Positions 1 through 45,775 are shown, numbered from the stretch's first letter. The stretch is 50,841 bases of DNA from Clostridiales bacterium (GCA_029265435.1 JAJUJH010000004.1:1-50841), one strand, 5' to 3'. Numbers and translations are program-made. The notes: generated from the letters alone by a model not told the origin.

Positions 1-708
1 ACCGATGAACCCTGCCACGAATTTATTGGCAGGCCTGTGGAACACATCCTGCGGCGTTCCGATCTGCATGATGTACCCATCTTTCATGATGACGATGCGG
101 TCGCCCAGCGTCATGGCTTCAATTTGGTCGTGCGTCACGTATATGTACGTTGTGTCGATCCTTTGACGCAGCTTGATGATCTCGGCGCGCATCTGGTTTC
201 TGAGCTTCGCGTCAAGGTTAGACAGCGGCTCGTCCATCAGGAACACTTTTGGCTCACGAACGATCGCGCGTCCTATTGCGACACGCTGGCGCTGCCCGCC
301 TGATAGCGCTTTCGGCTTGCGGTCGAGCAAGTCTGTTATGCCGAGTATCTCGGCGGCCTGTGTCACCTTGCGCTTGATTTCGTCCTTTTTCTCCTTGCGA
401 AGCTTAAGAGCAAACGCGAGATTGTCATAAACGGTCATGTGCGGATAAAGCGCGTAGTTCTGGAAAACCATCGCGATATCCCTGTCTTTCGGGGGGACGG
501 CATTGACGAGCTTGTCGTCAATATACAGCTCACCTTCCGTGATCTCCTCGAGCCCCGCCACCATACGCAGCGTGGTCGATTTGCCGCAGCCCGAAGGCCC
601 GACGAGCACAACGAATTCTTTGTCTTTGATTTCAAGATTGAATTCGTGTACGGCTACGACGGATTTGTCGTAAACCTTTTTGATGTTTTTGAGTGTCACC
701 TGTGCCAT
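1..708 (-). CDS. msmX: Sugar ABC transporter ATP-binding subunit, MsmX/MalK/UgpC type (first 236 codons; 3' end lies beyond the left edge)
   Basis: Absent from the ORF track because it is open at the window edge. Manual minus-strand translation from ATG 708-706 gives [49 protein letters not shown]... Walker [10 protein letters not shown], signature LSGGQRQR and Walker [13 protein letters not shown] are present. The frame stays open to position 1. Confidence 0.9.
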
Positions 709-969
709 AGATACGGCTCTGCCGCGCACAGCCTCCGCTAACTGCGCAGCTCCCCACCGCCCGAAAAATGTGACGATGGAATTACAGCAGGTCTCCACAC
801 TGCTGCACCGCAAGCCGATGCGGATAATTTTAACCTCCTTTTTTAGCTTCCCGGATGAGCATAGGTGGAGTCATCCGGTATACTTTAATTTGGGCAGCGC
901 CCAAGTTGAGAATCGTACGTTGATTCGGCAGTCATCGCCGGTATAAACCGACGTTATTATATCATACAT

Positions 970-20281: not shown

Positions 20282-21298
20282 ATGATCATTATTTTGAAAC
20301 CCGGCGCGGAAAAACAAAAGGTTGACGACCTGATCCGCTTTCTTCAAAGCGAGTATTCGCTGGAGGTGCAGCGTATGGACGGCGTCAATTATTCGATACT
20401 CGGACTCATCGGCGACACATCCGCGCTGGACACCGAGCCGATACAGGAACGCAGCGTCGTGAAAAAGGTGATGCGCGTGCAGGAGCCTTACAAAAAGGTG
20501 AACCGCGCGTTTCATCCGGACGACACGGTCGTGCAGGGCAGCGGCTTCACGATCGGCGCGGAGCGGCTCGCCGTAATGGCTGGGCCGTGCAGCGTGGAAA
20601 GCGAGGAGCAGATCGTGTCCCTTGCGCGCAAAGTGAAAGCCGCGGGAGCGAATTTTCTTCGCGGCGGCGCGTTCAAGCCGCGCACCAGCCCCTACAACTT
20701 TCAGGGCCTCGGCGAAGAAGGCCTTAAATACCTTGAGACCGCCAAGGCCGAAACGGGGCTGCCCATCGTGACGGAAATCACGAACGTGGAGCACGTCGAG
20801 CTGTTCGTGCGGAAGGTGGACGTGATCCAGGTGGGCGCCCGCAACATGCAGAACTTTGCGCTGCTGCGCGAGCTCGGCAAAACCAAAACGCCGGTGCTTT
20901 TGAAACGCGGCCTTTCCGCCACGATAGAGGAATGGCTGATGAGCGCCGAATACATCGCGGCGGGCGGCAACCCCAACGTGGTGCTCTGCGAGCGGGGCAT
21001 CCGCACTTTCGAAACGGCGACGCGCAACACGCTGGACCTGTCCGCTGTGCCTGTCGTCAAACGCATGAGCCATCTGCCCGTTATCGTGGACCCGAGCCAT
21101 GCGACAGGGCTGTGGTGGGCGGTGGAGCCGCTGGCCGTGGCCGCCGTATGCGCGGGCGCCGACGGCGTGATGATCGAAGTGCACGAAAGCCCCGCGGAAG
21201 CGCTTTCGGACGGCAAGCAGTCTCTGCTTCCCGAAAAATTCTCTTCCGTGACGCAAAAGCTGAAAGCCGCCGCAGAGCTGATGGGCAGGACGCTATGA
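20282..21298 (+). CDS. aroF: 3-deoxy-7-phosphoheptulonate (DAHP) synthase, type I-beta with an N-terminal ferredoxin-like regulatory domain
   Basis: Trimmed to ATG 20282 (MIIILKPGAEKQKVDDLIRFL...). A small N-terminal domain of about 70 aa precedes a KDO8PS-like TIM barrel (GPCSVES, LRGGAFKPRTSPY, DPSH). Confidence 0.9.
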   Translation: MIIILKPGAEKQKVDDLIRFLQSEYSLEVQRMDGVNYSILGLIGDTSALDTEPIQERSVVKKVMRVQEPYKKVNRAFHPDDTVVQGSGFTIGAERLAVMAGPCSVESEEQIVSLARKVKAAGANFLRGGAFKPRTSPYNFQGLGEEGLKYLETAKAETGLPIVTEITNVEHVELFVRKVDVIQVGARNMQNFALLRELGKTKTPVLLKRGLSATIEEWLMSAEYIAAGGNPNVVLCERGIRTFETATRNTLDLSAVPVVKRMSHLPVIVDPSHATGLWWAVEPLAVAAVCAGADGVMIEVHESPAEALSDGKQSLLPEKFSSVTQKLKAAAELMGRTL

Positions 21299-22131
21299 TA
21301 AAAGACCGATTTACAAACAGCCGCATCCTCGTTGCGGGGCTGGGGCTTATCGGCGGTTCCGCCGCCAAAGCGCTGAAAAAAACCGGCTGCGCGCATATCG
21401 ACGCGCTCGACAGCGACGTTCGGTCCGTTGAAGCGGCTATGGCCGACGGCGTGATCGAGTTCGGGTATACCGGCACCGGCGGTCCGTACGATATCGTCAT
21501 CTGCGCGCTGCCCCCAAGAGCCGTGCCCGATATCTACGGGCAGGTGAAGGACCGGCTTGCGGACGGCGGCGTGTTCGCCGAGCTTTCGGGGCTCAAGACC
21601 GCGCTTGTGGACGCGCTTTACGATGTGATGCAGCCTCGTCATTCGCTTCTGTGCCTCCACCCGATGGCGGGCAGCGAAAAGTCGGGGTACGCGCATTCGA
21701 GCGCGGCGCTTTTCGAAGGCGCGCATCTGATCGTGACGCCGACGGAGAAAACGACGGACTTATCGCTGGAATGGTCGGAATTCCTGTTTAAGGCGTTCGG
21801 GTGCGCGCGGAAATCGTCGCTCTCCCCCGCGCTTCACGACGCGGTGATTGCCGACATGAGCCATCTGCCCCACGTGGCCGCGCTTGCCGTATATGCGGTG
21901 GGAAAAGGGCTTGAGCGGTTCGCGGGCGGCAGCTTTCAGGCAATCACGCGCGTGGCCGATTTGAACGCGCCGCTGTGGGCGGGGCTGTTGACGGACAACG
22001 CGGAATATCTGCAGCGCAGCCTTGCGCGCCTGCGGCGCAACCTCGACATGATCGACGAGGCGCTGACCGAGCGCGACAGGGACAAGCTTGAAATCCTGCT
22101 CTCAAATATGGCCAAAGGAGCCGATATATGA
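21295..22131 (+). CDS. tyrA: Prephenate dehydrogenase
   Basis: Trimmed to ATG 21295, which overlaps the aroF stop as ATGA. The NAD-binding motif ILVAGLGLIGGSAAKAL and HPMAG are present; 278 aa. Confidence 0.85.
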   Translation: MIKDRFTNSRILVAGLGLIGGSAAKALKKTGCAHIDALDSDVRSVEAAMADGVIEFGYTGTGGPYDIVICALPPRAVPDIYGQVKDRLADGGVFAELSGLKTALVDALYDVMQPRHSLLCLHPMAGSEKSGYAHSSAALFEGAHLIVTPTEKTTDLSLEWSEFLFKAFGCARKSSLSPALHDAVIADMSHLPHVAALAVYAVGKGLERFAGGSFQAITRVADLNAPLWAGLLTDNAEYLQRSLARLRRNLDMIDEALTERDRDKLEILLSNMAKGADI

Positions 22132-23195
22132 ACATGCTGACCATGCGCGCGGGAAGCGCCGAATATTCCGTATATGTCGAAAGGGGACTGCTCAAAAGCG
22201 TGCCCGGACGGCTTAAAGAAATGTTTCCCGAAAGCCGGCTCGCCGTCATCACGGACGACAATGTCGGCAGTCTGTACGGGCAGTCCTTCGCCGCCGCGTG
22301 CGAAACGGCGGGGCTTCGCTGCGACCTTTTCAGCGTTGCGCCCGGCGAAGGCTCGAAAAGCGCCGGCACGTTCGCGCGGCTTTTGAGCGAGCTTGCGCAG
22401 CACGGCTACAACCGCGCCGATGTGGTTGCCGCGCTGGGCGGCGGCGTTGTGGGAGACCTCGCCGGCTTCGTGGCCGCGGTGTATCTTCGCGGCGTGAAGG
22501 CCGTGCAGATTCCCACCACGCTGCTCGCGCAAATCGACAGCTCCGTGGGCGGCAAAACCGGCATCAACCTGCCCGAGGGCAAAAACCTCGCGGGCGCGTT
22601 CCATCAGCCGAGCGCCGTGTTCGTGGACCCGTCGCTTCTGGGAACGCTTTCCGAAGCGGATTTTGCGGACGGCATGGCGGAGCTCGTCAAATACGCGCTC
22701 ATCCGCGACGCGGAAATGTTTGAACAGCTTGAGCGGTTCGGCGCGGCTCCGGCCGGTTCGGATATGCTCGATTCGTGGATCGTCCGCTGTCTTTCCATCA
22801 AGCGCGATATCGTCGCGGCGGATGAAAAAGACACGGGCGAACGCATGCTGCTGAACTTCGGCCACACCATCGGGCACGGCATCGAGCGGCTTTGCGCCGC
22901 AAAGAATCTGCCGATGACGCACGGGCGCGCCGTCGCGATCGGCATGACGGCCATCACATCGGCCGCGGAACGCATGGGGCTCGCCAAAGCGGGCACCGCG
23001 GAGCGCATCGCCTGCGTGCTGCATAAAACGGGCCTGCCTTACGACATATCGGCATATGACAAGGACGAGATATGGAAGGGTATAGTCGTGGACAAGAAAA
23101 CCCTTGCCGACAAGCTGACGCTTGTAATCGTATCCGAGCCGGGCCGCGCCATGCTTCACCGCGTCGCCGCCGCCGACGCCAGAAATTTTCTATGA
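22128..23195 (+). CDS. aroB: 3-dehydroquinate synthase
   Basis: 355 aa with GGGVVGDLAGFVAA, the D..VGGKTGIN motif and FGHT.GH metal ligands. AAAGGAG SD is present, and the start overlaps the tyrA stop (ATGA). Confidence 0.92.
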   Translation: MNMLTMRAGSAEYSVYVERGLLKSVPGRLKEMFPESRLAVITDDNVGSLYGQSFAAACETAGLRCDLFSVAPGEGSKSAGTFARLLSELAQHGYNRADVVAALGGGVVGDLAGFVAAVYLRGVKAVQIPTTLLAQIDSSVGGKTGINLPEGKNLAGAFHQPSAVFVDPSLLGTLSEADFADGMAELVKYALIRDAEMFEQLERFGAAPAGSDMLDSWIVRCLSIKRDIVAADEKDTGERMLLNFGHTIGHGIERLCAAKNLPMTHGRAVAIGMTAITSAAERMGLAKAGTAERIACVLHKTGLPYDISAYDKDEIWKGIVVDKKTLADKLTLVIVSEPGRAMLHRVAAADARNFL

Positions 23196-23205
23196 GGAGT
23201 CAGCC

Positions 23206-24474
23206 ATGCAGATAACCGTTTCATCCTCCGCCTATGGCGGCGCCGTCACCGCACCGCCCTCCAAAAGCGCGGCGCACCGCGCCGTACTCGCGGCGGCAAT
23301 GGCAAAAGGCCGCAGCGTCATACACAACGTCGATTTGTCGAGCGATCTTAACGCCACGGTCGGCGCCTGCCGCAGTCTCGGATGCGCAATAACCGTCCGG
23401 CAGTGCGGACGCTACCATACGCTCGTCATAGACGGCGGCCTCTCCCTTTCCGGAGAAGCCCTGATTGACTGCGCCGAATCCGGCTCTACGCTGCGCTTCT
23501 TCATTCCCGTGGCGTGCACGCTCGGCGGCGTCAAGACGTTTACCGGCCAAGGCCGCCTGCCGTTCCGCCCTATCGACGCGTATCTGGCCGTTTTTGACCG
23601 GCAAGGCATTGCCTATACCCGTCCCGAGGGCGCAAACCTGCCGCTGACGGTATCCGGCGCGCTTGAAGGCGGCCGATATGAGATCGACGGGCGCGTGAGC
23701 TCGCAGTTCGTCACGGGGCTTTTGTATGCGCTGCCCGTGCTCGCCGCCGATTCCGCCATCTGCGTGACCGGCGGCTTTGAATCCCGCGGATACGTCGATA
23801 TGACGGTGGATACGCTCCGCCGGTTCGGTATCGACATCGGCGTTTCCGGCGATACGTTCTTAATAAAGGGCGGCCAGCGGTATGCCCCGCAGGAGCTCAC
23901 CGTCGAAGGCGATTATTCTCAGGCCGCTTTTTTTCTCGTGGCGGGCGCACTCTCGGGCGGCGCGCGCATCGAAGGGCTCCGCGGCGGCTCCTTGCAGCCC
24001 GACGGCGCGATCGTGCCGATCATGCGGCGCATGGGCGCGGATATCCGGCGTGAGGAAGACGGCGCGCTGACCGTCAGGCAGTCGGCGCTGTCGGCGGCCG
24101 ATATCGACGCGTCGCAATGTCCCGACCTTGTGCCCCCGCTTGCCGTCGCGGCGGCGTTCGCAAAAGGGCGCACGCGCATCACGGGCGCGGCGCGGCTGCG
24201 CATCAAGGAATGCGACCGTCTGCACGCGCTGGCGGTCAACCTGAACGCGCTCGGCATCGGCGTCTGCGAAACGGACGACGGGCTCATCATTGAAGGCGGC
24301 GCGATGAAGGGCGGCATCGTCGATACCTACGGCGACCACCGCATCGCGATGGCGTTTGCCGTCGCGGCGGCGCGCGCATCCGGAAAAATCGTGATTCCGA
24401 ATGCGGAATGCGTCGGGAAATCGTACCCGAAGTTCTACGACGACTTGAAAGCACTGGGAGGAAACATACAATGA
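23206..24474 (+). CDS. aroA: 3-phosphoshikimate 1-carboxyvinyltransferase (EPSP synthase)
   Basis: 422 aa. PPSKSAAHRAVLAAAMA, ESGSTLRFF and GDHRIAMAFAVAA are typical EPSPS motifs. Confidence 0.93.
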   Translation: MQITVSSSAYGGAVTAPPSKSAAHRAVLAAAMAKGRSVIHNVDLSSDLNATVGACRSLGCAITVRQCGRYHTLVIDGGLSLSGEALIDCAESGSTLRFFIPVACTLGGVKTFTGQGRLPFRPIDAYLAVFDRQGIAYTRPEGANLPLTVSGALEGGRYEIDGRVSSQFVTGLLYALPVLAADSAICVTGGFESRGYVDMTVDTLRRFGIDIGVSGDTFLIKGGQRYAPQELTVEGDYSQAAFFLVAGALSGGARIEGLRGGSLQPDGAIVPIMRRMGADIRREEDGALTVRQSALSAADIDASQCPDLVPPLAVAAAFAKGRTRITGAARLRIKECDRLHALAVNLNALGIGVCETDDGLIIEGGAMKGGIVDTYGDHRIAMAFAVAAARASGKIVIPNAECVGKSYPKFYDDLKALGGNIQ

Positions 24475-25550
24475 GCAGCATATGGGGGCGCTTTTTCACC
24501 GTGGATATATTCGGAGAATCGCACGGGCCGAAGATCGGCGTTGTGCTGAACGGCCTTGCGCCGGGCACCGTACTGGATTTTCCGAAGATACGCGCGTTTT
24601 TGGACAGGCGGCGCGCGGGCGGCGAAGCATGGTCTACCAAGCGCCAAGAAACGGACGATTTTGAGCTGGTCAGCGGCTATGCAAACGGCTTTTCCACGGG
24701 CACGCCGCTCTGCGTGCTTTTCCACAACGCCGCACAGAGAAGCGCGGACTACGACGAGCGCGTGAACCGTCCGGGCCATGCCGATTATACGGGCCATGTG
24801 CGCTACGGCGGTTTCAACGACCCGCGCGGCGGCGGCCATTTTTCGGGCAGGCTGACCGCCCCGCTCGTATTCGCGGGCGCCGTGGCGGCTCAGGTGCTTG
24901 CGGCAAAGGGCGTTTACACCGCCGTTCATATCCGCCGCATCGCGGATATCGAGGACGCGGCTTTCGACCCGACGGACATTTCCCGCGAGCAGGCACAGCG
25001 CCTTTCCGCCTCGCGCTTTCCTCTGCTCGACGAATCAAAGCGCGAGGCGATGGAGGAACGCGTCAGGCAGGCCGCGGCCGAGGGCGATTCCGTGGGCGGC
25101 GTCGTTGAATGTGCGGTATGCGGCCTTCCCGCCGGGCTCGGCAGCCCGATGATGGACTCGGTGGAGAGCCGTCTTTCGTCTCTGCTTTTCGCGATCCCCG
25201 CCGTCAAGGGCGTATCGTTCGGCGCGGGTTTCCGTTTTGCCCATATGAGGGGCAGCGAAGCCAACGACGCCTACGCGCTGAGAGACGGCGCCGTCGTCAC
25301 GACAACCAACCACAACGGCGGCGTGCTCGGCGGTATCACAAACGGCATGCCCGTCGTGTTTGAAGCCGTTGTGAAGCCTACGCCTTCCATATCAAAGCCG
25401 CAGCGCACGGTGAACCTGAGTACGATGGAAGAGGAGACCGTCTGCGTCAAAGGCCGGCACGACGCGTGCATCGTGCCGCGGGCGGCGGCGGTGATCGATG
25501 CGGCGGCCAATATCTGCATGCTCGATCTGATGACGGAAAGGGGGCTTTAA
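24471..25550 (+). CDS. aroC: Chorismate synthase
   Basis: Trimmed to ATG 24471, which overlaps the aroA stop as ATGA. FGESHGP, RPGHADY and GGG.FSGR motifs are present. Confidence 0.92.
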   Translation: MSSIWGRFFTVDIFGESHGPKIGVVLNGLAPGTVLDFPKIRAFLDRRRAGGEAWSTKRQETDDFELVSGYANGFSTGTPLCVLFHNAAQRSADYDERVNRPGHADYTGHVRYGGFNDPRGGGHFSGRLTAPLVFAGAVAAQVLAAKGVYTAVHIRRIADIEDAAFDPTDISREQAQRLSASRFPLLDESKREAMEERVRQAAAEGDSVGGVVECAVCGLPAGLGSPMMDSVESRLSSLLFAIPAVKGVSFGAGFRFAHMRGSEANDAYALRDGAVVTTTNHNGGVLGGITNGMPVVFEAVVKPTPSISKPQRTVNLSTMEEETVCVKGRHDACIVPRAAAVIDAAANICMLDLMTERGL

Positions 25551-26669
25551 ATGGGTTACGAGGAAGACATCAAACGCCTGAGAGACGAAATAGACGGCAT
25601 CGACGCGCAGCTCGTGCCGCTTTTCGAAGCGCGCATGGCGGCGGCGGAGGCTGTCGCCGAAGTCAAAAGCCGCTACGGCATGCCGGTTTTCGACGCGGAG
25701 CGCGAAAATGCCGTGATCGGCCGAGCGCTTGAGCGGCTCCGGGACGCCAAAAACGGCGAAGCCGCGCGTCGGTTTTTCCGCGCGCTCATGGACCTCAGCA
25801 AACAGCGCCAGCATATTCAAATCAGACAAACCGGCGCAGCGCCCGCCGGCGATGGCATGCCGGTGGGATACCTCGGCCTTAAAGGGTCGTTCTCGCACAT
25901 CGCGGCGGTTGAAACCTTCGGGGAAGGCGCGCCGCTCCAAAGCTATGACACATTTGAAGACATGTTCGAGGCGCTGCGCCGCGGCGAAATAGGCCGAGCG
26001 ATATTGCCCGCGGAAAATACCGAGACGGGCAGCATCACCGCCGTGATCGATCTGCTCGCGAAATACGGCTATTTCATCGTCGCGGAAAAGCTTTTAAAGG
26101 TGGAGCACAGCCTTCTCGGTCTGCCGGACGCGGAACTTTCGGACATCAGAACGGTCTGCTCTCACCCCGAGCCCATTATGCAGTGCAGCCGTTTTCTGCA
26201 CGCGCATCCGGCCATCGCCGCATTTCCCGCGCTCAGCACGGCGCAGGCGGCTATGAGCGTCGCGGAAAAGAAGGACAAAACGCTCGGCTGCATCGCGTCC
26301 GAGCGGTGCGCAAAAGAATACGGCCTCAAAGTCATTGAAGCAAATATACAAAACAGCCAGGGAAACGCCACGCGCTTTGTGGTGGCGGCGAAAAGCCCCG
26401 TTTTAAGCCCCGCGTGCGACAAGACAAGCATCGTTTTCAAGGTGGAGCACCGCCCCGGCTCTCTCTGCGAGATGCTCAAATTATTTTCCGGCATCAACAT
26501 ACTGAAGCTGGAGTCGCGCCCGCTTAAAGACAGGCCTTTCGAATATCTGTTCCACCTCGATTTCGAGGGCAGCGCGGAGGATGAAAACGTCTCGCGCGTG
26601 CTCAGGCAGGCCGAAAAATGCGCGGCCGATCTCATATGGCTCGGTTCTTACCCGCGCATGACGCTGTAA
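25551..26669 (+). CDS. pheA: Bifunctional chorismate mutase / prephenate dehydratase (P-protein) with C-terminal ACT domain
   Basis: N-terminal CM type 2 (LRDEIDGIDAQLVPLFEARM), a PDT core (GYLGLKGSFSH ... TRF) and an ACT-like ESRP motif (LESRPLKDRPFEY.F). Confidence 0.9.
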   Translation: MGYEEDIKRLRDEIDGIDAQLVPLFEARMAAAEAVAEVKSRYGMPVFDAERENAVIGRALERLRDAKNGEAARRFFRALMDLSKQRQHIQIRQTGAAPAGDGMPVGYLGLKGSFSHIAAVETFGEGAPLQSYDTFEDMFEALRRGEIGRAILPAENTETGSITAVIDLLAKYGYFIVAEKLLKVEHSLLGLPDAELSDIRTVCSHPEPIMQCSRFLHAHPAIAAFPALSTAQAAMSVAEKKDKTLGCIASERCAKEYGLKVIEANIQNSQGNATRFVVAAKSPVLSPACDKTSIVFKVEHRPGSLCEMLKLFSGINILKLESRPLKDRPFEYLFHLDFEGSAEDENVSRVLRQAEKCAADLIWLGSYPRMTL

Positions 26670-26679
26670 AGGAGGCGGC

Positions 26680-27981
26680 ATGATCAAAGCCGGATTGATT
26701 GGCGGGAAGCTGTCTCACAGCCTTTCTCCGCAGATACATGAAAAATACTGGCGCCTTTCTGGCATGCTCGGGCGTTATGCGCTGATAGAAACCGACGAGC
26801 GGCATTTGAAGGAGCGCCTTGACGAGATTCAGGCACTGGGGTTTGCGGGCGTCAACGTGACGATACCGCACAAAACGGCGGTGATGCGCTGTCTGGATGT
26901 GATATCGCCCGAGGCCGACGCGATCGGGGCGGTCAACACGATTCATTTCCGCTCCGGCAAGCGAATCGGCCACAACACCGATTACTTCGGCTTAAAGTCT
27001 TTGCTGGACAGAAACGGCTTTACGCTGACGGGCAGCCGCGTGGCGATACTCGGCTCAGGCGGTGCGGCGCGATGCGCGCTCGCCCTTTGCCGCGACGAGC
27101 AGGCCGCCGAGGTTTTGGTGGTGAGCCGCTCTCCCGAAAAAGCCGACGCAATGCTGAACGCCGTCGGCTATGAAGCGCTTGACGCTTCGGACCGAATCGA
27201 CCTGCTCATCAACGCCACGCCTTCCGGCATGTTCCCCCATACGGGCGAATGCCCCGTTTCCGACGCGGTGATCCAAAAGTGCGAGAACATTGCCGATATG
27301 ATATACAACCCCGCGCGCACGCTGCTGCTGCAAAAAGCCGCCAAGCTCGGCAAGGGTGCCGTCAACGGGCTCTGGATGCTTTGCGCGCAGGCAATCAAAG
27401 CGCAGGAGATATGGACGGGCAGGCCGTTCGAGGAACCCATTTGCCGCACGATCTACGAGGGGCTCAAGGAGCCCGTGCCGCGTTCCAACATCGTGCTGAT
27501 CGGCATGCCGGGCAGCGGCAAATCCACGGTCGGGCAGATACTGGCCGAACGGCTGTTTTACCGTTTTGCGGATACCGACGCGATGATCGAGGCGCAGCAC
27601 GGCTTGATACAGACGATATTCGATACGCAGGGCGAAGCGGTTTTCCGTGATATGGAGCTCAAAGCGGCGCGGCAGGCTGCCTGCAGGCAAAACTGCGTCG
27701 TCTCCACAGGCGGGGGCATCGTCCAGACCGGCGCCGCGATGGATGCGCTTAAGGAAACGGGGATTGTGGTATACATCGACAGACCGCTCGAAAAGCTGCT
27801 CAACGAAGTGGACATATCGGGCAGGCCGCTGCTTGCGGGCGGACGGCAGCAGCTCATCGCGCTGTTTCAAAAGCGGCGCGCGCTTTATCGGCAATATGCG
27901 GACGTCGTCATCGATAACAGCGGCTCCGCGCGGCAATGCGCCGAACAAATCATACAAAAGCTGGAGGATATCCGAAAATGA
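26680..27981 (+). CDS. aroE: Fused shikimate dehydrogenase (AroE, N-terminal ~265 aa) and shikimate kinase (AroK, C-terminal ~165 aa)
   Basis: The SDH part shows SLSPQIH, NVTIPHK, NTDY.G and GSGGAAR. After residue ~270 comes a P-loop kinase with NIVLIGMPGSGKSTVG and FADTD. It is a single uninterrupted 433-codon frame. Confidence 0.88.
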   Translation: MIKAGLIGGKLSHSLSPQIHEKYWRLSGMLGRYALIETDERHLKERLDEIQALGFAGVNVTIPHKTAVMRCLDVISPEADAIGAVNTIHFRSGKRIGHNTDYFGLKSLLDRNGFTLTGSRVAILGSGGAARCALALCRDEQAAEVLVVSRSPEKADAMLNAVGYEALDASDRIDLLINATPSGMFPHTGECPVSDAVIQKCENIADMIYNPARTLLLQKAAKLGKGAVNGLWMLCAQAIKAQEIWTGRPFEEPICRTIYEGLKEPVPRSNIVLIGMPGSGKSTVGQILAERLFYRFADTDAMIEAQHGLIQTIFDTQGEAVFRDMELKAARQAACRQNCVVSTGGGIVQTGAAMDALKETGIVVYIDRPLEKLLNEVDISGRPLLAGGRQQLIALFQKRRALYRQYADVVIDNSGSARQCAEQIIQKLEDIRK

Positions 27982-28409
27982 AAATACTCGTCATCAACGG
28001 GCCGAACCTGAACCTTTTGGGCACGCGCGAGCCGGACGTATACGGCAGACAGGATTACGCGGCGCTGATAAACAAGCTTGACGGCTTCGCAAAAGAAAAA
28101 GGCGTCGTGATCGACGCGTTCCAGTCAAACGGCGAGGGCGCGATTATCGACCGAATCCACGCGGCGGCGGGAGAATACGACGGCATTGTGATCAATCCGG
28201 GCGCGTATACGCATTACAGCATCGCGATACACGACGCGCTGAAGGCGGTGAATGTGCCCGCCATCGAGGTGCATATAAGCAACATCGCCGCACGCGAGGA
28301 TTTCCGCCATGCGTCGGTGACGGCGGCGGCATGTGCCGGCCAGATTTCCGGCCTCGGCTTTAATTCGTATCTTCTCGCGGTTCAGGCGCTGATCGACATG
28401 CAGAATTGA
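27978..28409 (+). CDS. aroQ: Type II 3-dehydroquinate dehydratase
   Basis: Trimmed to ATG 27978, which overlaps the previous stop as ATGA. MKILVINGPNLNLLGTREP..YG and INPGAYTHYS are type II DHQase signatures. Confidence 0.93.
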   Translation: MKILVINGPNLNLLGTREPDVYGRQDYAALINKLDGFAKEKGVVIDAFQSNGEGAIIDRIHAAAGEYDGIVINPGAYTHYSIAIHDALKAVNVPAIEVHISNIAAREDFRHASVTAAACAGQISGLGFNSYLLAVQALIDMQN

Positions 28410-43090: not shown

Positions 43091-43123
43091 GGCAAAGAGA
43101 CGGCGGAAAGCCGCCTCTTTGCC
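43091..43123. terminator. Second copy of the adhE-type hairpin, 7 nt beyond the stop of the minus-strand desulfurase gene
   Basis: GGCAAAGAGACGGC-GGAAA-GCCGCCTCTTTGCC, followed by TTTAT on the plus strand. Confidence 0.45.
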
Positions 43124-43129
43124 TTTATG

Positions 43130-44503
43130 TCAACGAGCGGCCAGTTCGCGCAGTGCGCAAACAAGCGCGTCGATATCCTCATACGTGTTATACATTCCGA
43201 TTGAAGCGCGAGCAGCGCTTGCAAGGCCGTAATGCGCGAGCGCGGGCTGCGCGCAGTGGCAGCCCGCACGCACCGCGATGCCGTGATCGTTGAGATGCCG
43301 CGCGATTGCCATCGGCTCCGCGTTGTCCATCACGAACGCCGCGACACTCGTTCGGCTCTCCGACGCGCCGATCAGCGTCAGCCCCGGTATGCGCGACAGG
43401 CCCTCCGTCATGTACCGCGTAAGCGCGTGCTCAAACGCGGCGATCCTGCCCATGCCCACTTCGTTTATATAATCGATGGCTGCGCCCAGCCCCACCGCGT
43501 CCGCAATATTGCCCGTGCCCGCTTCGAATTTCGCGGGAATCGGCTGATACTCCGTTTTTTCAAAGCTCACTTTTCTTATCATGCCGCCGCCGCTCTGATA
43601 CGGCGGCATGCTTTCAAGCAGCGCCTTTTTGCCATACAGCACGCCGATGCCCGTCGGCGCGTACACCTTGTGCCCCGAAAACACAAAAAAATCCGCGTCC
43701 ATCTCCCGCACGTCCACAGGCAGGTGCGGTGCGGACTGCGCGCCGTCCACGAGTATCAGCGCGCCGTGCCGGTGGGCGGCGTCCGCAATGATTTTCACCG
43801 GATTCACCGTTCCGAGCACGTTGGATACATGCGTCACGGCGCAAAGCCGCGTTCGCGGCGTGATCAGCCGTTCAAACGCATACGGATCGAGTTCTCCCGA
43901 CCAATCAAACGGCATGACCTTGATGACCGCGCCCGTTTTTTCGGCGGCGCGCTGCCAGGGCACGATGTTGGAATGATGCTCCATCTCGGTGAGCAGTATC
44001 TCGTCGCCGGGGTGAAGATTTGCGGCGCCCCAGCTCTCCGCCGCAAGATTGATGCCCTCCGTCGTGCCGCGCACGAAAATGATCTCTTCAGCCGACGCCG
44101 CGCCCAGAAAGGCGCGCACCTTCTCCCTCGCTTCCTCATAGCAAAGTGTGGCCCGCTGTGCGAGCGTGTGCGCGCCGCGATGCACGTTGGCGTTGCTTGC
44201 GCTGTAATAGCGGCTCACCGCGTCGATTACGCATTGAGGCTTCTGCGTGGTCGCCGCGTTGTCGAGCCAGACGAGCGGCTTGCCGTTCACCTTCGTTTTA
44301 AGTATCGGAAAATCATCGCGGACGAACGGCGCCGCAGGCGAAGGCTCCCGGCCCGCATTAACGGCCGGCGTAACGCTTTGCCGCATAAAAGGCATATCCT
44401 TGGGCATCTCTGCGTTTGGCCTTGCGGGCATTATGTCGCCTCGCAGAAAGCTTTCCGTCATTGCCTGCCGGACCCGCCATGGCGTATTGCTTGTCATCAT
44501 CAT
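43130..44503 (-). CDS. SufS/CsdA-type (group II) cysteine desulfurase with an N-terminal extension of about 60 aa; no suf/isc partners nearby
   Basis: DNAATTQKP, a PLP-lysine block SGHKVYAPTGIGVLYGK and the active-site RAGCHCAQP are present. The start is set at ATG 44503 (MMMTSN...), 5 nt after GGAGAGGAG. Confidence 0.85.
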   Translation of the reverse strand: MMMTSNTPWRVRQAMTESFLRGDIMPARPNAEMPKDMPFMRQSVTPAVNAGREPSPAAPFVRDDFPILKTKVNGKPLVWLDNAATTQKPQCVIDAVSRYYSASNANVHRGAHTLAQRATLCYEEAREKVRAFLGAASAEEIIFVRGTTEGINLAAESWGAANLHPGDEILLTEMEHHSNIVPWQRAAEKTGAVIKVMPFDWSGELDPYAFERLITPRTRLCAVTHVSNVLGTVNPVKIIADAAHRHGALILVDGAQSAPHLPVDVREMDADFFVFSGHKVYAPTGIGVLYGKKALLESMPPYQSGGGMIRKVSFEKTEYQPIPAKFEAGTGNIADAVGLGAAIDYINEVGMGRIAAFEHALTRYMTEGLSRIPGLTLIGASESRTSVAAFVMDNAEPMAIARHLNDHGIAVRAGCHCAQPALAHYGLASAARASIGMYNTYEDIDALVCALRELAAR

Positions 44504-44670
44504 ACCTGCTCCTCTCCGCATAATCGGGAACGCCGGAAATATTGTCCGCTGGCACTGCAGAGAAATAAAGGCTCGGAATATGCAAAACGATCCGCCCGAT
44601 ACCGCCGGGTCTCATCGTCATTCTCAAATACGGGCTTATCCATGCCATAGACGGGGCCGTATTGATTCAT
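44500..44670 (-). CDS. Hypothetical 56-aa ORF translationally coupled to the desulfurase gene
   Basis: Not in the ORF track (under 60 aa). The manual translation is MNQYGPVYGMDKPVFENDDETRRYRADRFAYSEPLFLCSASGQYFRRSRLCGEEQV. GAAGGGAAG lies upstream, and its TGA overlaps the desulfurase ATG (ATGA). Confidence 0.35.
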   Translation of the reverse strand: MNQYGPVYGMDKPVFENDDETRRYRADRFAYSEPLFLCSASGQYFRRSRLCGEEQV

Positions 44671-44921
44671 CGTTCTTCCCTTCTTACCCCAAAGCCGATA
44701 TGGCCTTGCGATTACTATATGAGCATGCCCTTTGCGCTGTGCGGCGCGCGTCCAGCCGTTCCGCCGACGAACACACCGCCCTGCATGAAACAGGCTTCAC
44801 ACAGGGCGGTTTGAAAAGAGGGTGGACACAGAAGCAAAGAGGGGGGCAAATGCGAACCGTTTGAATGTAAGGCCCGCCGCCTTGGCGAGCCTGCTCTCTA
44901 GGCTTCACAAAGAACGATCCG

Positions 44922-45131
44922 TCAGCACCACCAGCAGCGGCGGCAGACACAGCAGCACCAGCAGCGCTTCCTGCAGCCATAAGGCTTGTAATGGAAGCCC
45001 CGGATACCGTCTTTATCTTCCCACGGAACATATCCGCCGAATTCGGCGTTGTCCCGATCCGCGCCGTCAATTTCGCCGAAGCCTTGGGGCTCGTTCTTCG
45101 CATCAGGCCATTGAGGATATCCATCCGGCAT
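44922..45131 (-). CDS. Hypothetical 69-aa protein: acidic/aromatic N-terminal part plus a cationic Cys/Trp-rich C-terminal tail
   Basis: Track ORF 44922..45140 was trimmed to ATG 45131 after the SD-like GGGGGGTGA. The product is MPDGYPQWPDAKNEPQGFGEIDGADRDNAEFGGYVPWEDKDGIRGFHYKPYGCRKRCWCCCVCRRCWWC. Its upstream motif is shared with the 45659 micro-ORF. Confidence 0.5.
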   Translation of the reverse strand: MPDGYPQWPDAKNEPQGFGEIDGADRDNAEFGGYVPWEDKDGIRGFHYKPYGCRKRCWCCCVCRRCWWC

Positions 45132-45560
45132 AAGTGTCACCCCCCTCTATGCATATTGTATTCACAGAAAAAAAAAAGTGCGCTTATAATTCTTCATGTT
45201 CTTTCTCAGCGCTTCATTGCCGTTTTGTCTGTGATATTTCTCACTCCAATCTGCATAGAGTATACAAGCATATCAAACGAGGGTTTTGTATGAAGCGCGA
45301 AGAAGAAGATGATGAGATTATCATAAAAAAGATCACCGAAAAGCAAAAGCTCTCGGCTTATATCGGGCTTCAGAACGTACCGCTCAGAGAGGACGACCCC
45401 CGTATCAGCATCAGGTTTCCCATCAGCCTCCGGTTGTTCTGCGCCGCTTTTGCCGTATCGCGCATGGAAAAAAACAAAAACGAAGGGTGAGCCTGCGCCT
45501 CATGTATGGCCCGCCGCAGCGGCGAGCCGTTTGGGGAACTCGGTCTTTTGCCGCCGGGCT

Positions 45561-45659
45561 TTACCAGCGCCAGCCGCCGCGGTTCCAGCCGCAGCAGCGG
45601 TTCCAGCCGCAGCCCCAGCCGCGGTTCCAGCCGCAGCCCCAATTACACCTGCAGCACAT
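45561..45659 (-). CDS. Hypothetical 32-aa Cys/Trp/Gly/Arg-rich micro-protein with three CGWNR repeats
   Basis: Not in the ORF track (under 60 aa). The codon-by-codon manual translation is MCCRCNWGCGWNRGWGCGWNRCCGWNRGGWRW followed by a stop. The SD-like GGGGGGGTGA ends 4 nt before the ATG. An in-frame TAA lies 8 codons upstream, so this is the only possible start. Confidence 0.5.
   Translation of the reverse strand: MCCRCNWGCGWNRGWGCGWNRCCGWNRGGWRW
45579..45637. repeat. Three copies of the 17-nt unit GCGGTTCCAGCCGCAGC (periods 18 and 24 nt) underlying the CGWNR peptide repeats
   Basis: Perfect copies at 45579-45595, 45597-45613 and 45621-45637. The spacing is a multiple of 3, consistent with a coding repeat. 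Confidence 0.85.
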
Positions 45660-45775
45660 TATCTCACCCCCCCTATTGATATATTATTCGCAGGGCTGCG
45701 TATTGTCACGTTCCCGCTCTTTCGTCACATTTTATACAAACGAATATTTTTCCGTCTGCGGCCAATAATAGGCTT

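Follow-up and report, generated by a model that had tools for sequence, protein, structure and literature searches.

We analysed 50,841 nucleotides (nt) of DNA from a Clostridiales bacterium (GCA_029265435.1, JAJUJH010000004.1:1-50841; this whole 50.8-kb stretch is hereafter called the window) and focused on a small group of genes lying between adhE and the gerA/gerAC/spore-permease operon, flanks that a preliminary description had named correctly. That description had presented the group as an unexplained cluster, in which an orphan, N-terminally extended SufS-like cysteine desulfurase is linked to a 56-codon open reading frame (ORF) and to two Cys/Trp-rich micro-proteins. Our analysis splits the cluster into a known system in decay and a synteny-adjacent family of small genes that is undescribed in every library searched. 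The earlier view that the arrangement is not a described system thus holds for the peptide family and fails for the desulfurase and the 56-codon ORF, which belong to a decayed, already described family 2A encapsulin operon.

All four minus-strand ORFs were found where they had been placed (Table 1). The statement that every ORF runs on the minus strand is wrong, a conserved gene for a 66-residue protein having been overlooked on the plus strand. The 32-residue peptide carries seven Trp, as counted before, together with seven Cys, not eight, and eight Gly, while the 69-residue protein does end in CRKRCWCCCVCRRCWWC. Direct inspection of both sequences agreed with the earlier remark that neither Cys/Trp peptide has a hydrophobic stretch. 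The segments preceding the two genes are indeed nearly identical; they measure 28 and 29 nt with about 23 identities, not 29 nt each with about 24, as the 32-residue gene has a run of seven G, not eight. The window is a strain variant of the Joint Genome Institute (JGI) metagenome contig 3300001682 SAHD_10001411 (locus L001; 98.8% identity over 15.9 kb), and the nearest genomes are uncultured Bacillota metagenome-assembled genomes, followed by Christensenellaceae/Christensenellales. Other loci are cited below by handles of the same kind.

Table 1 Features of the locus, with positions counted from the first letter of the window (SD, Shine-Dalgarno sequence; UTR, untranslated region; RBS, ribosome-binding site)
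Feature	Position	Strand	Remark
Terminator-like hairpin after the desulfurase gene	43102..43115	-	Downstream of the cargo gene
Cysteine desulfurase, 457 residues from MMMTSN	43130..44503	-	Probable former family 2A encapsulin cargo, from NF041166, 8KG1 and shell-bearing relatives; longer version of the ORF from 44521
Shell gene 3' remnant	44480..44622	-	Frame differs from that of the 56-codon ORF; encodes ...MTMRPGGIGRIVLHIPSLYFSAVPADNISGVPDYAERSRYDDDK (SLYFSAVPAD...YDDDK), matching shell residues 282-328
56-codon ORF, chimeric shell-gene remnant	44500..44670	-	Shell RBS, start and first ~14 codons (MNQYGP...), then shell 3' end out of frame
Small 5'-UTR hairpin of the operon	44691..44707	-	AAGGCC..GGCTTT in the window, AAGACC..GGTCTT in relatives
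Sigma-K-type promoter of the former shell-desulfurase operon	44713..44740	-	AC-N17-CATATAGTA; from conservation and consensus match
3'-UTR segment complementary to the SD region of the 69-residue gene	44814..44850	-	GCCCCCCUCU, GUGUCCACCCUCU; duplexfold -33.3 kcal/mol, 2/200 shuffles as good
Invariant hairpin after the 69-residue gene	44871..44891	-	GGCTCGCC-AAGGC-GGCGGGCC, then TTACAT
69-residue protein	44922..45131	-	Acidic N-terminal part (MPDGYPQWP...), basic Cys/Trp-rich tail; micro-ORF paralogue, same cassette
5' module of the 69-residue gene	45137..45168	-	GAATACAATATGCATAGAGGGGGGTGA; -10-like region and long SD
Promoter-like site of the 66-residue gene	45161-45190	+	TTCACA-18-TATAAT; 11/12 positions match
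Conserved gene for a 66-residue protein	45290..45490	+	Convergent to the 32-residue gene, overlaps its 3' UTR; JGI-called; homologues in 8 loci
3'-UTR segment complementary to SD and start codon of the 32-residue gene	45464..45500	-	GCGCAGGCUCACCCUUCG, then U-run; duplexfold -26.9 kcal/mol, 1/200 shuffles as good
Invariant hairpin after the 32-residue gene	45508..45528	-	GGCTCGCC-GCTGC-GGCGGGCC, then ATACAT
32-residue micro-protein	45561..45659	-	MCCRCNWGCGWNRGWGCGWNRCCGWNRGGWRW; Gly/Cys/Trp/Arg family, 13 members
Promoter and SD of the 32-residue gene	45661..45709	-	GTGACA-17-TAATAT, then GGGGGGGTGAGAT; conserved in 9 other loci

The desulfurase and the shell-gene remnant

The desulfurase probably starts at the ATG at 44503, which lies behind the RBS GGAGAGGAG and agrees with the JGI call on the near-identical contig. 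As had been noted, about 60 additional residues precede its Aminotran_5 domain. The catalytic domain is intact, with the pyridoxal phosphate (PLP) lysine in SGHK and the catalytic Cys loop AGCHCAQ. The enzyme passes TIGR01979 (sufS) with 557.2 bits (cut-off 475.1), and its best NCBIfam model is NF041166, which describes cysteine desulfurases carried as cargo by family 2A encapsulins (670.8 bits, over profile positions 219-623 only). The closest solved structure is 8KG1 (518 bits), which we take to derive from the study of the mycobacterial Enc-CD desulfurase, with SufS entries at around 435 bits. We found no sufE, sufU or sufBCD in the window or beside the relatives examined, and the earlier statement that no suf/isc scaffold gene is present stands for the entire window.

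Relatives at 69-78% identity to the desulfurase all sit behind a shell gene. In the nearest two, L002 (72%) and L003 (78%), a 328-residue ORF lies directly upstream, overlaps the desulfurase start by 14 nt and passes both NF041162 (family 2A shell; 441-442 bits vs a cut-off of 380) and PF19307 (SrpI-like). An intact shell gene is found directly upstream of the desulfurase in all 11 closest lineages, and a shell stands beside the cargo in L002, L003, L085, L091-L100 and L005-L012. The relatives recovered through homologues of the desulfurase gene, cyd (69-76% identity), follow one layout, namely ger operon, small genes, intact shell and desulfurase, with adhE next in all but L099; the layout of L085 agrees as far as its 3.2 kb reach.

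The DNA upstream of the window desulfurase aligns with the 5' end (44686-44629) and the 3' end (44622-44480) of the shell gene in two different frames. The 3' piece was matched by tblastn at 45% identity over 47 residues (E 3e-5), with concurring blastn alignments to L002 and L003, and the start MNQYGP of the 56-codon ORF corresponds to MNQYDPS of the shells of L002, L003 and L085. What is left of the gene amounts to about 58 nt from the 5' end and about 143 nt from the 3' end, with about 805 bp deleted, and no other shell match was found in the window. On these alignments the 56-codon ORF is a chimera with no apparent function as a protein. Its stop does overlap the desulfurase start, as the preliminary description had it, the TGA sharing ATGA with the ATG at 44503. 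The ancestor would have carried a shell and a cargo gene overlapping by 14 nt behind a sigma-K-type promoter; after the loss of about 805 bp of the shell gene in this lineage, the shell RBS, start and first ~14 codons would be read out of frame through the last ~140 nt of the shell, stopping on the desulfurase ATG. Translation of the 56-codon ORF may still deliver ribosomes to the desulfurase start.

Comparison of the window with L001 separates the two ORFs. The desulfurase genes show 12 differences over 1374 nt, nine of them at third codon positions, while the 6 differences over the 171 nt of the 56-codon ORF fall mainly at the first and second codon positions, which argues that selection maintains the enzyme but not the remnant. 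The desulfurase persists as a free enzyme under purifying selection.

The loading domain has decayed as well. A disordered N-terminal domain with two motifs, LARLANEFFS and AASPYYFLDG, is reported to bring the desulfurase into the shell (Nichols et al., PMC8049743). Most shell-bearing Bacillota relatives keep motif 1 in recognisable form (e.g. ELxxLANRFYRG or ..ANRFYRG..), its ANRxY part being weaker or missing in P0013, P0014, P0016 and L005/L007/L008, and the YYF of motif 2 is kept in all of them (e.g. ..PYYFM.. or PYYFMxQ). The window enzyme has QAMTESFLRG and DMP--FMRQ instead, with the YY pair deleted, so that both loading motifs are eroded. Such erosion would be expected if selection on shell binding had been relaxed once the shell was gone.

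By descent, the desulfurase is probably what remains of a family 2A encapsulin system, its former cargo enzyme, lying within a clade whose members all adjoin a shell gene. Several observations weigh against this reading. The NF041166 score of 670.8 lies below the 800-bit cut-off, with the intact cargo of L002 scoring similarly (683.8). The N-terminal domains are short in all Bacillota relatives (60-90 residues vs ~220), which implies that the model was not built for them. In addition, our view covers 50.8 kb of the genome, and a second shell gene could lie elsewhere.

Upstream of the shell start, at ~72-81 nt, GCAC-N17-CATATAGTA is conserved in eight loci of the clade. The Christensenellaceae loci L005, L007 and L008 carry AC-N17-CATATCATA with unrelated spacers, and the near-match CATATAGTG occurs in L006, L010 and L099. 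As background, the pattern turns up five times across 101.7 kb of window sequence, both strands counted. The sigma-K consensus of Bacillus subtilis and Clostridioides difficile is AC at -35 and CATATAAT at -10, while sigma-E has ATA at -35 (PMC3789822). The occurrence of AC-N17-CATAnnnTA before family 2A encapsulin operons of spore-forming Bacillota suggests late mother-cell expression. The sigma-K assignment draws on a consensus match, and a weak sigma-A alternative, GGCACA-18-TATAGT, could be read in the same region, which counts against it. Between this promoter and the start lies the small 5'-UTR hairpin, in which the alignment, read directly, shows a compensatory A-T to G-C change between the window and the clade.

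The micro-genes and the plus-strand gene

The 32-residue peptide belongs to a family of 13 members of 32-44 residues, which all start with MC(C/N) and end in (W/R)RW, or in CW in L088 and L089. L002 and L003 have a 38-43-residue ORF at the matching place, between the divergent gerA and the shell gene; six more micro-ORF lineages were recovered through the cyd homologues, and a metagenome scan with the hairpin that follows the ORF added L085, L088 and L089. The other six of the nine hairpin matches of that scan (L082, L083, L084, L086, L087 and L090) have no such ORF and were treated as chance or as another element. Residues G, C, W, R, N and F make up 96% of the family, with 20% Cys, 19% aromatic residues (W/F) and 12% Arg. 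Codon position 2 is G in 88% of the codons, position 3 varies among synonymous choices, and all length changes between orthologues are in frame. In L003, L085 and L099 internal Trp is replaced by Phe, an exchange of one aromatic residue for another that takes two base changes in each codon and points to selection on the peptide. The window and L001 differ at two sites of the 32-residue gene (Gly to Cys and Cys to Trp), with the composition kept.

The family has gone unseen by standard means. Gene callers never called the 32-residue type as a gene, and a profile search with four micro-peptides gave no match. In Pfam and NCBIfam, ten family members gave no match except a sub-threshold one to KRTAP (PF11759, E 0.018), and Rfam gave none in this part of the window at gathering or E-value thresholds. 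A pattern search for SD, ORF and stop returned 0 matches in a metagenome collection that does not include the window's own contig. By its pattern of change the micro-ORF family is taken as real, and it is undescribed in every library searched here.

The 69-residue protein is its larger paralogue. Orthologues lie at the same position in L085 (1366-1686, 106 residues) and L099 (3583-3801, 72 residues); they share the N-terminus M-x-x-G-[YC]-x-x-WP and the tail ..KP.C.K..CC..C..W, joined by an acidic Trp/Asp middle of variable length. The gene shows one difference between strains, a synonymous one. Searches of 5.8 billion proteins returned only the protein itself, and those of 1.84 billion representatives two chance matches to repetitive proteins; DNA searches found its relatives where protein searches failed. 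An AlphaFold2 model was uninformative, with a predicted local distance difference test (pLDDT) score of 54. The earlier claim that the two Cys/Trp genes are real, paralogous and served by common expression signals is borne out by a shared -10/SD module, 3' hairpin and anti-SD tail, with the micro-ORF in 13 lineages and the 69-residue type in three.

The overlooked plus-strand gene lies between the two micro-genes and is divergent from the 69-residue gene. Over 43 codons in eight lineages its variation at codon positions 1/2/3 is 16/12/41, and this concentration at the third position marks it as a real gene. The protein has a charged N-terminus and the core ITAYIGLQNEPLGEEPNISISFxISLRLFCVAFAISRMEK, with no family match, and AlphaFold2 on the single sequence gave two helices (pLDDT 73). 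In eight lineages its transcript is predicted to overlap the 3' UTR of the convergent cassette, and the gene could act on the cassettes as a regulator or as an RNA partner.

Whether these genes form one system with the desulfurase was judged from their distribution. According to the preliminary description, the extended SufS, the coupled 56-residue protein and the two Cys-rich peptides would be one sulfur/persulfide relay or peptide-modification system. The four genes are adjacent on one strand in the window, and the micro-ORF stands upstream of the shell-desulfurase operon in 11 lineages; these lineages belong to one syntenic clade, however, and so count as a single event. The micro-ORF occurs without ger, shell or desulfurase genes beside it in L088, where it lies between a gene for 238 residues (for which no family search was run) and adhE, and in L089, where it precedes a TetR/flavin mononucleotide (FMN)-reductase gene pair. 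Conversely, the micro-ORF is absent from the Christensenellaceae loci L005-L010, which carry the operon of shell and desulfurase genes. The units are also served by separate promoters and terminators, with a plus-strand gene in between, and the 56-residue ORF evolves neutrally. Among the Pfam-annotated neighbours in L001 and seven clade lineages no maturase gene (radical SAM, lanthipeptide synthetase, YcaO etc.) was found, which speaks against the suggestion of modified-peptide precursors. We consider a joint relay very unlikely. The locus probably consists of two unrelated units that are neighbours by descent, a decayed family 2A encapsulin operon and micro-gene cassettes for which we propose self-silencing.

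The genes beside the outgroup micro-ORFs, adhE in L088 and TetR plus FMN reductase in L089, are those found just beyond the desulfurase in the main clade. An older neighbourhood of micro-ORF, adhE and TetR may therefore have either gained the encapsulin operon by insertion or lost it.

Cassette signals and the predicted mRNA fold-back

In the 13 lineages the order of the cassette is constant: promoter, very strong SD, ORF, invariant GC hairpin and terminator. In the nine other loci with a conserved promoter, the 5' signals read TTGTGACA-N17-TATATA...GGGGGGTGAGAT-nn-ATGTGT, and the SD block, with an SD of 9-10 nt, is constant across the family (TAGATAAGGGGGGTGAGAT-nn-ATGTGT). Compared by eye with sigma-K, E, G, F and H, the promoter fits none of them and reads best, tentatively, as a sigma-A-like GTGACA-17-TATATA; the conserved -35 block stands ~9 nt nearer the SD in L088. 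The hairpin has a family-wide stem of 8 bp, GGCTCGCC/GGCG(G/A)GCC, with a free loop, followed by nTACAT(TC). In the form GGCTCGCC-N5-GGCGGGCC-nTACAT it occurs exactly twice in the 50.8 kb, compared with 0/100 shuffles. Readings of the hairpin as a selenocysteine insertion sequence (SECIS)-like or integron-attC-like element were rejected on inspection, owing to the wrong position and to the cassettes' own promoter.

Two side observations concern the same 3' elements. An identical 30-nt element, GCGGCTCGCCTCAGAAGGCGGGCCCTACAT, is present in three unrelated soil metagenome contigs, L083 (~564-591), L087 (~1160-1187) and L090 (657-684); it comprises the stem and tail of the cassette hairpin with no Cys-rich ORF nearby, and may be a repeat element or a chance match. 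In L085 (863-878, plus strand) a second cassette-type terminator, AAGGGTTCTCGCCCTT plus a T-run, follows ~165 nt after the first, which hints at further partial duplications of the cassette 3' module.

The 3' end of the cassette transcript is complementary to its own translation start. The terminator AAGGGU-UCUC-ACCCUU with its U-run, together with a conserved CACAU just before it, can pair with the SD (GGGUGAGA) and AUGUG. The predicted 5'-3' duplexes range from -20 to -33 kcal/mol, with 0-12/200 shuffles as good for the clade members and for the paralogues of the window and L085, and whole-transcript folds close both ends (z -4.7 and -8.7). The base before AUG and the base after CACAU covary, as C:G in L002 and L097, A:U in L095, L098 and L100, and U:A in L085. 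A compensatory change from GGGUGAGA:UCUCACCC to GGGUGACACUC:GAGUGUCACCC is found in the L085 paralogue, which pairs GGGUGACACUCAUG with CAUaGAGUGUCACCC, while the 69-residue gene of the window pairs AGAGGGGGG with CCCCCCUCU. In a hand-spliced alignment 82.8% of cells pair, vs 45-72% with the partners slid, and seven pairs are changed on both sides, a number reached by 0/500 shuffles; as hand splicing itself favours structure, we treat this test as supporting evidence only.

These features would fit a self-silencing mRNA of the kind described for hok and aapA1, whose full-length toxin mRNAs cannot be translated until their 3' ends are processed (PMC5416894). A full-length cassette mRNA would close on itself and would not be translatable, and it would be opened either by trimming of its 3' end as far as the stable hairpin or by base pairing with the convergent transcript; the invariant hairpin is placed exactly where such trimming would stop. 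From the RNA predictions we rate this mechanism an even prospect. A number of points weigh against it. The complementarity is not significant in L088, L089 and the L099 paralogue, and helix B is lost in L091. The invariant stem shows almost no covariation, a single U.G to U-A change having been seen, and some complementarity to an SD is to be expected of any pyrimidine-rich terminator arm. Other frames across the GC-rich repeat are also open. Both the translation of the micro-peptides and the hiding of the SD are predictions from sequence. We saw no conserved antisense promoter, L003, L099, L088 and L089 lack the convergent gene, and, in contrast to known type I toxins, the peptides have no hydrophobic character.

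Two further accounts were considered. If the micro-ORFs were untranslated, the conserved unit would be a non-coding RNA or a GC-rich repeat; the hairpin is in fact more conserved than the peptide sequence, the repeat is open in several frames, gene callers skipped the ORF and the protein profile search was empty. The 9-10-nt SD at ideal spacing, the invariant ATG and stop in 13 lineages, the in-frame length changes with synonymously varying third positions, and an SD/AUG-pairing element that makes sense only if initiation is controlled all contradict this account, and we find it highly doubtful. The 32-residue ORF could also be a Cys-codon leader peptide attenuating the sulfur-related operon downstream, given its 6-11 Cys codons, a terminator ~90 nt past the stop and the induction of family 2A encapsulins by sulfur starvation in other phyla (PMC8049743). 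This account is largely refuted and hardly credible. A conserved promoter belonging to the operon itself lies 72-81 nt ahead of the shell start, the plus-strand gene and in some lineages a second cassette intervene, and cassettes also adjoin unrelated genes; moreover, a separate terminator follows the micro-ORF, we saw no alternative terminator/antiterminator structures, and the change from Trp to Phe argues for selection at the peptide level.

With a translated peptide, the question becomes what it does. It is conceivable that the peptide is tightly gated and harmful if unchecked, in a toxin-like manner, for which the fold-back, a cationic composition rich in Trp and Arg, and the duplicated, patchily occurring cassette are arguments. 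A stricter form would make the cassettes type I toxin-antitoxin-like, with the peptide as toxin and the convergent plus-strand transcript as antitoxin RNA; txpA/RatA and bsrG/SR4 of Bacillus subtilis are 3'-overlapping modules of this type. Peptides shorter than 50 residues, the predicted sequestration of SD and AUG by long-range pairing, the overlapping transcript predicted in eight lineages, the duplicated and patchily distributed cassette, and the activation of hok/aapA1 translation by 3' processing would suit it. We nevertheless think it unlikely, as hydrophobic helices are absent from all the peptides, the partner transcript codes for a conserved protein and not a small RNA, the ORFs stay intact where the partner is absent (the four lineages named above and the paralogue cassettes), and a conserved antisense promoter was not found.

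A role as thiol or metal buffer is a minority possibility. In its metallothionein-like form, a buffer for thiols, metals or sulfide, it is consistent with the 20% Cys, the Gly spacers (GCGCG, CGGC) and small, cytosolic proteins with strong expression signals; small fungal Cu-thioneins have a similar Cys content and Gly spacers. The 19% aromatic and 12% Arg content is unusual for metallothioneins, however, the Cys positions are not conserved between orthologues, composition alone being kept, no match was found in the Pfam/NCBIfam metallothionein families, and the annotated neighbours in L001 and seven clade lineages include no metal sensor or transporter gene. We regard this form as doubtful. 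A cross-linkable matrix or spore component, in line with the spore coat or crust role suggested earlier, seems unlikely; the neighbouring encapsulin operon has a sigma-K-type promoter, and the cassettes lack one. It is just as conceivable as the toxin-like role that the peptide does something else.

The boldest combination of these readings would make the cassette a new self-silenced module, its closed mRNA opened by 3' trimming or convergent pairing and its product a non-hydrophobic, cationic Gly/Cys/Trp/Arg effector or toxin, and would separately make the family 2A desulfurase encapsulins of spore-forming Bacillota late mother-cell sigma-K genes. We put it forward as a speculative proposal of limited likelihood.

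Elsewhere in the window, a malK-I RNA (Rfam RF03069, 125 bits) lies at 703-888 (minus strand), just downstream of a DUF624 gene and two ATP-binding cassette (ABC) permease genes, in a region of sugar utilisation where a LacI regulator and GH94/GH1 genes are found too. Positions 20932-28409 (plus strand) carry a complete shikimate/aromatic amino-acid operon, with genes for prephenate dehydrogenase, 3-dehydroquinate (DHQ) synthase, 5-enolpyruvylshikimate-3-phosphate (EPSP) synthase, chorismate synthase, chorismate mutase/prephenate dehydratase, a shikimate dehydrogenase-kinase fusion and type II dehydroquinase.

Significance and comparison with known systems

Our analysis removes a false lead, the supposed orphan extended SufS with a coupled ORF being a known system caught in decay. 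It provides a natural case of a cargo enzyme that has outlived its encapsulin shell, with catalysis kept and motifs eroded, and the eroded motifs are useful for defining the N-terminal residues needed for loading. The sigma-K-type promoter suggests that the sulfur compartment is a sporulation gene in spore-formers, a proposal of which we found no earlier version; if true, it would tie sulfur storage to spore formation. The micro-proteins are invisible to gene callers and protein databases, yet their expression apparatus is strictly conserved, and the apparent fold-back of the 3' UTR onto the SD would extend the control logic of type I toxins to chemically very different peptides.

With SufS the window enzyme shares a passing TIGR01979 score, the PLP lysine and the catalytic cysteine loop. 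It differs in the lack of sufE, sufU and sufBCD in the window and in scoring higher on the encapsulin-cargo model and structure.

The catalytic domain is closest to the cargo subfamily of the family 2A desulfurase encapsulins, examples of which are SrpI/CyD of Synechococcus elongatus (PMC8049743), the sulfur-storage compartment of Acinetobacter baumannii (PMC10836720) and mycobacterial Enc-CD. The relatives of the window show the canonical order of shell then cargo and versions of both loading motifs, whereas in the window the shell gene is cut to a remnant and the motifs have decayed. Across the whole Bacillota clade the loading domain has 60-90 residues rather than ~220, and the operon, which has a sigma-K-type promoter, includes no gene for a rhodanese or a serine acetyltransferase. 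In other phyla, these encapsulins are induced by sulfur starvation and store sulfur inside the shell (PMC8049743, PMC10836720).

Among Cys-rich proteins, small metallothioneins resemble the micro-proteins in size, Cys content and Gly spacers, and differ in that the micro-proteins are Trp/Phe- and Arg-rich, with Cys spacing not conserved and no family match. The high-glycine/tyrosine and high-sulfur KRTAP proteins (PF11759) have the same low-complexity Gly/Cys/aromatic composition and fast repeat turnover; the likeness is compositional, without homology, and KRTAPs are eukaryotic and cross-linked outside the reducing cytosol.

Compared with hok/Sok and aapA1/IsoA1 (PMC5416894), the cassettes encode Gly/Cys/Trp/Arg-rich peptides that are not hydrophobic, and no antisense small RNA was identified. 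The likeness lies in the predicted RNA fold: like those systems, the cassettes combine a small ORF, a predicted hiding of SD and AUG by the 3' end, and a stable hairpin at which trimming could stop.

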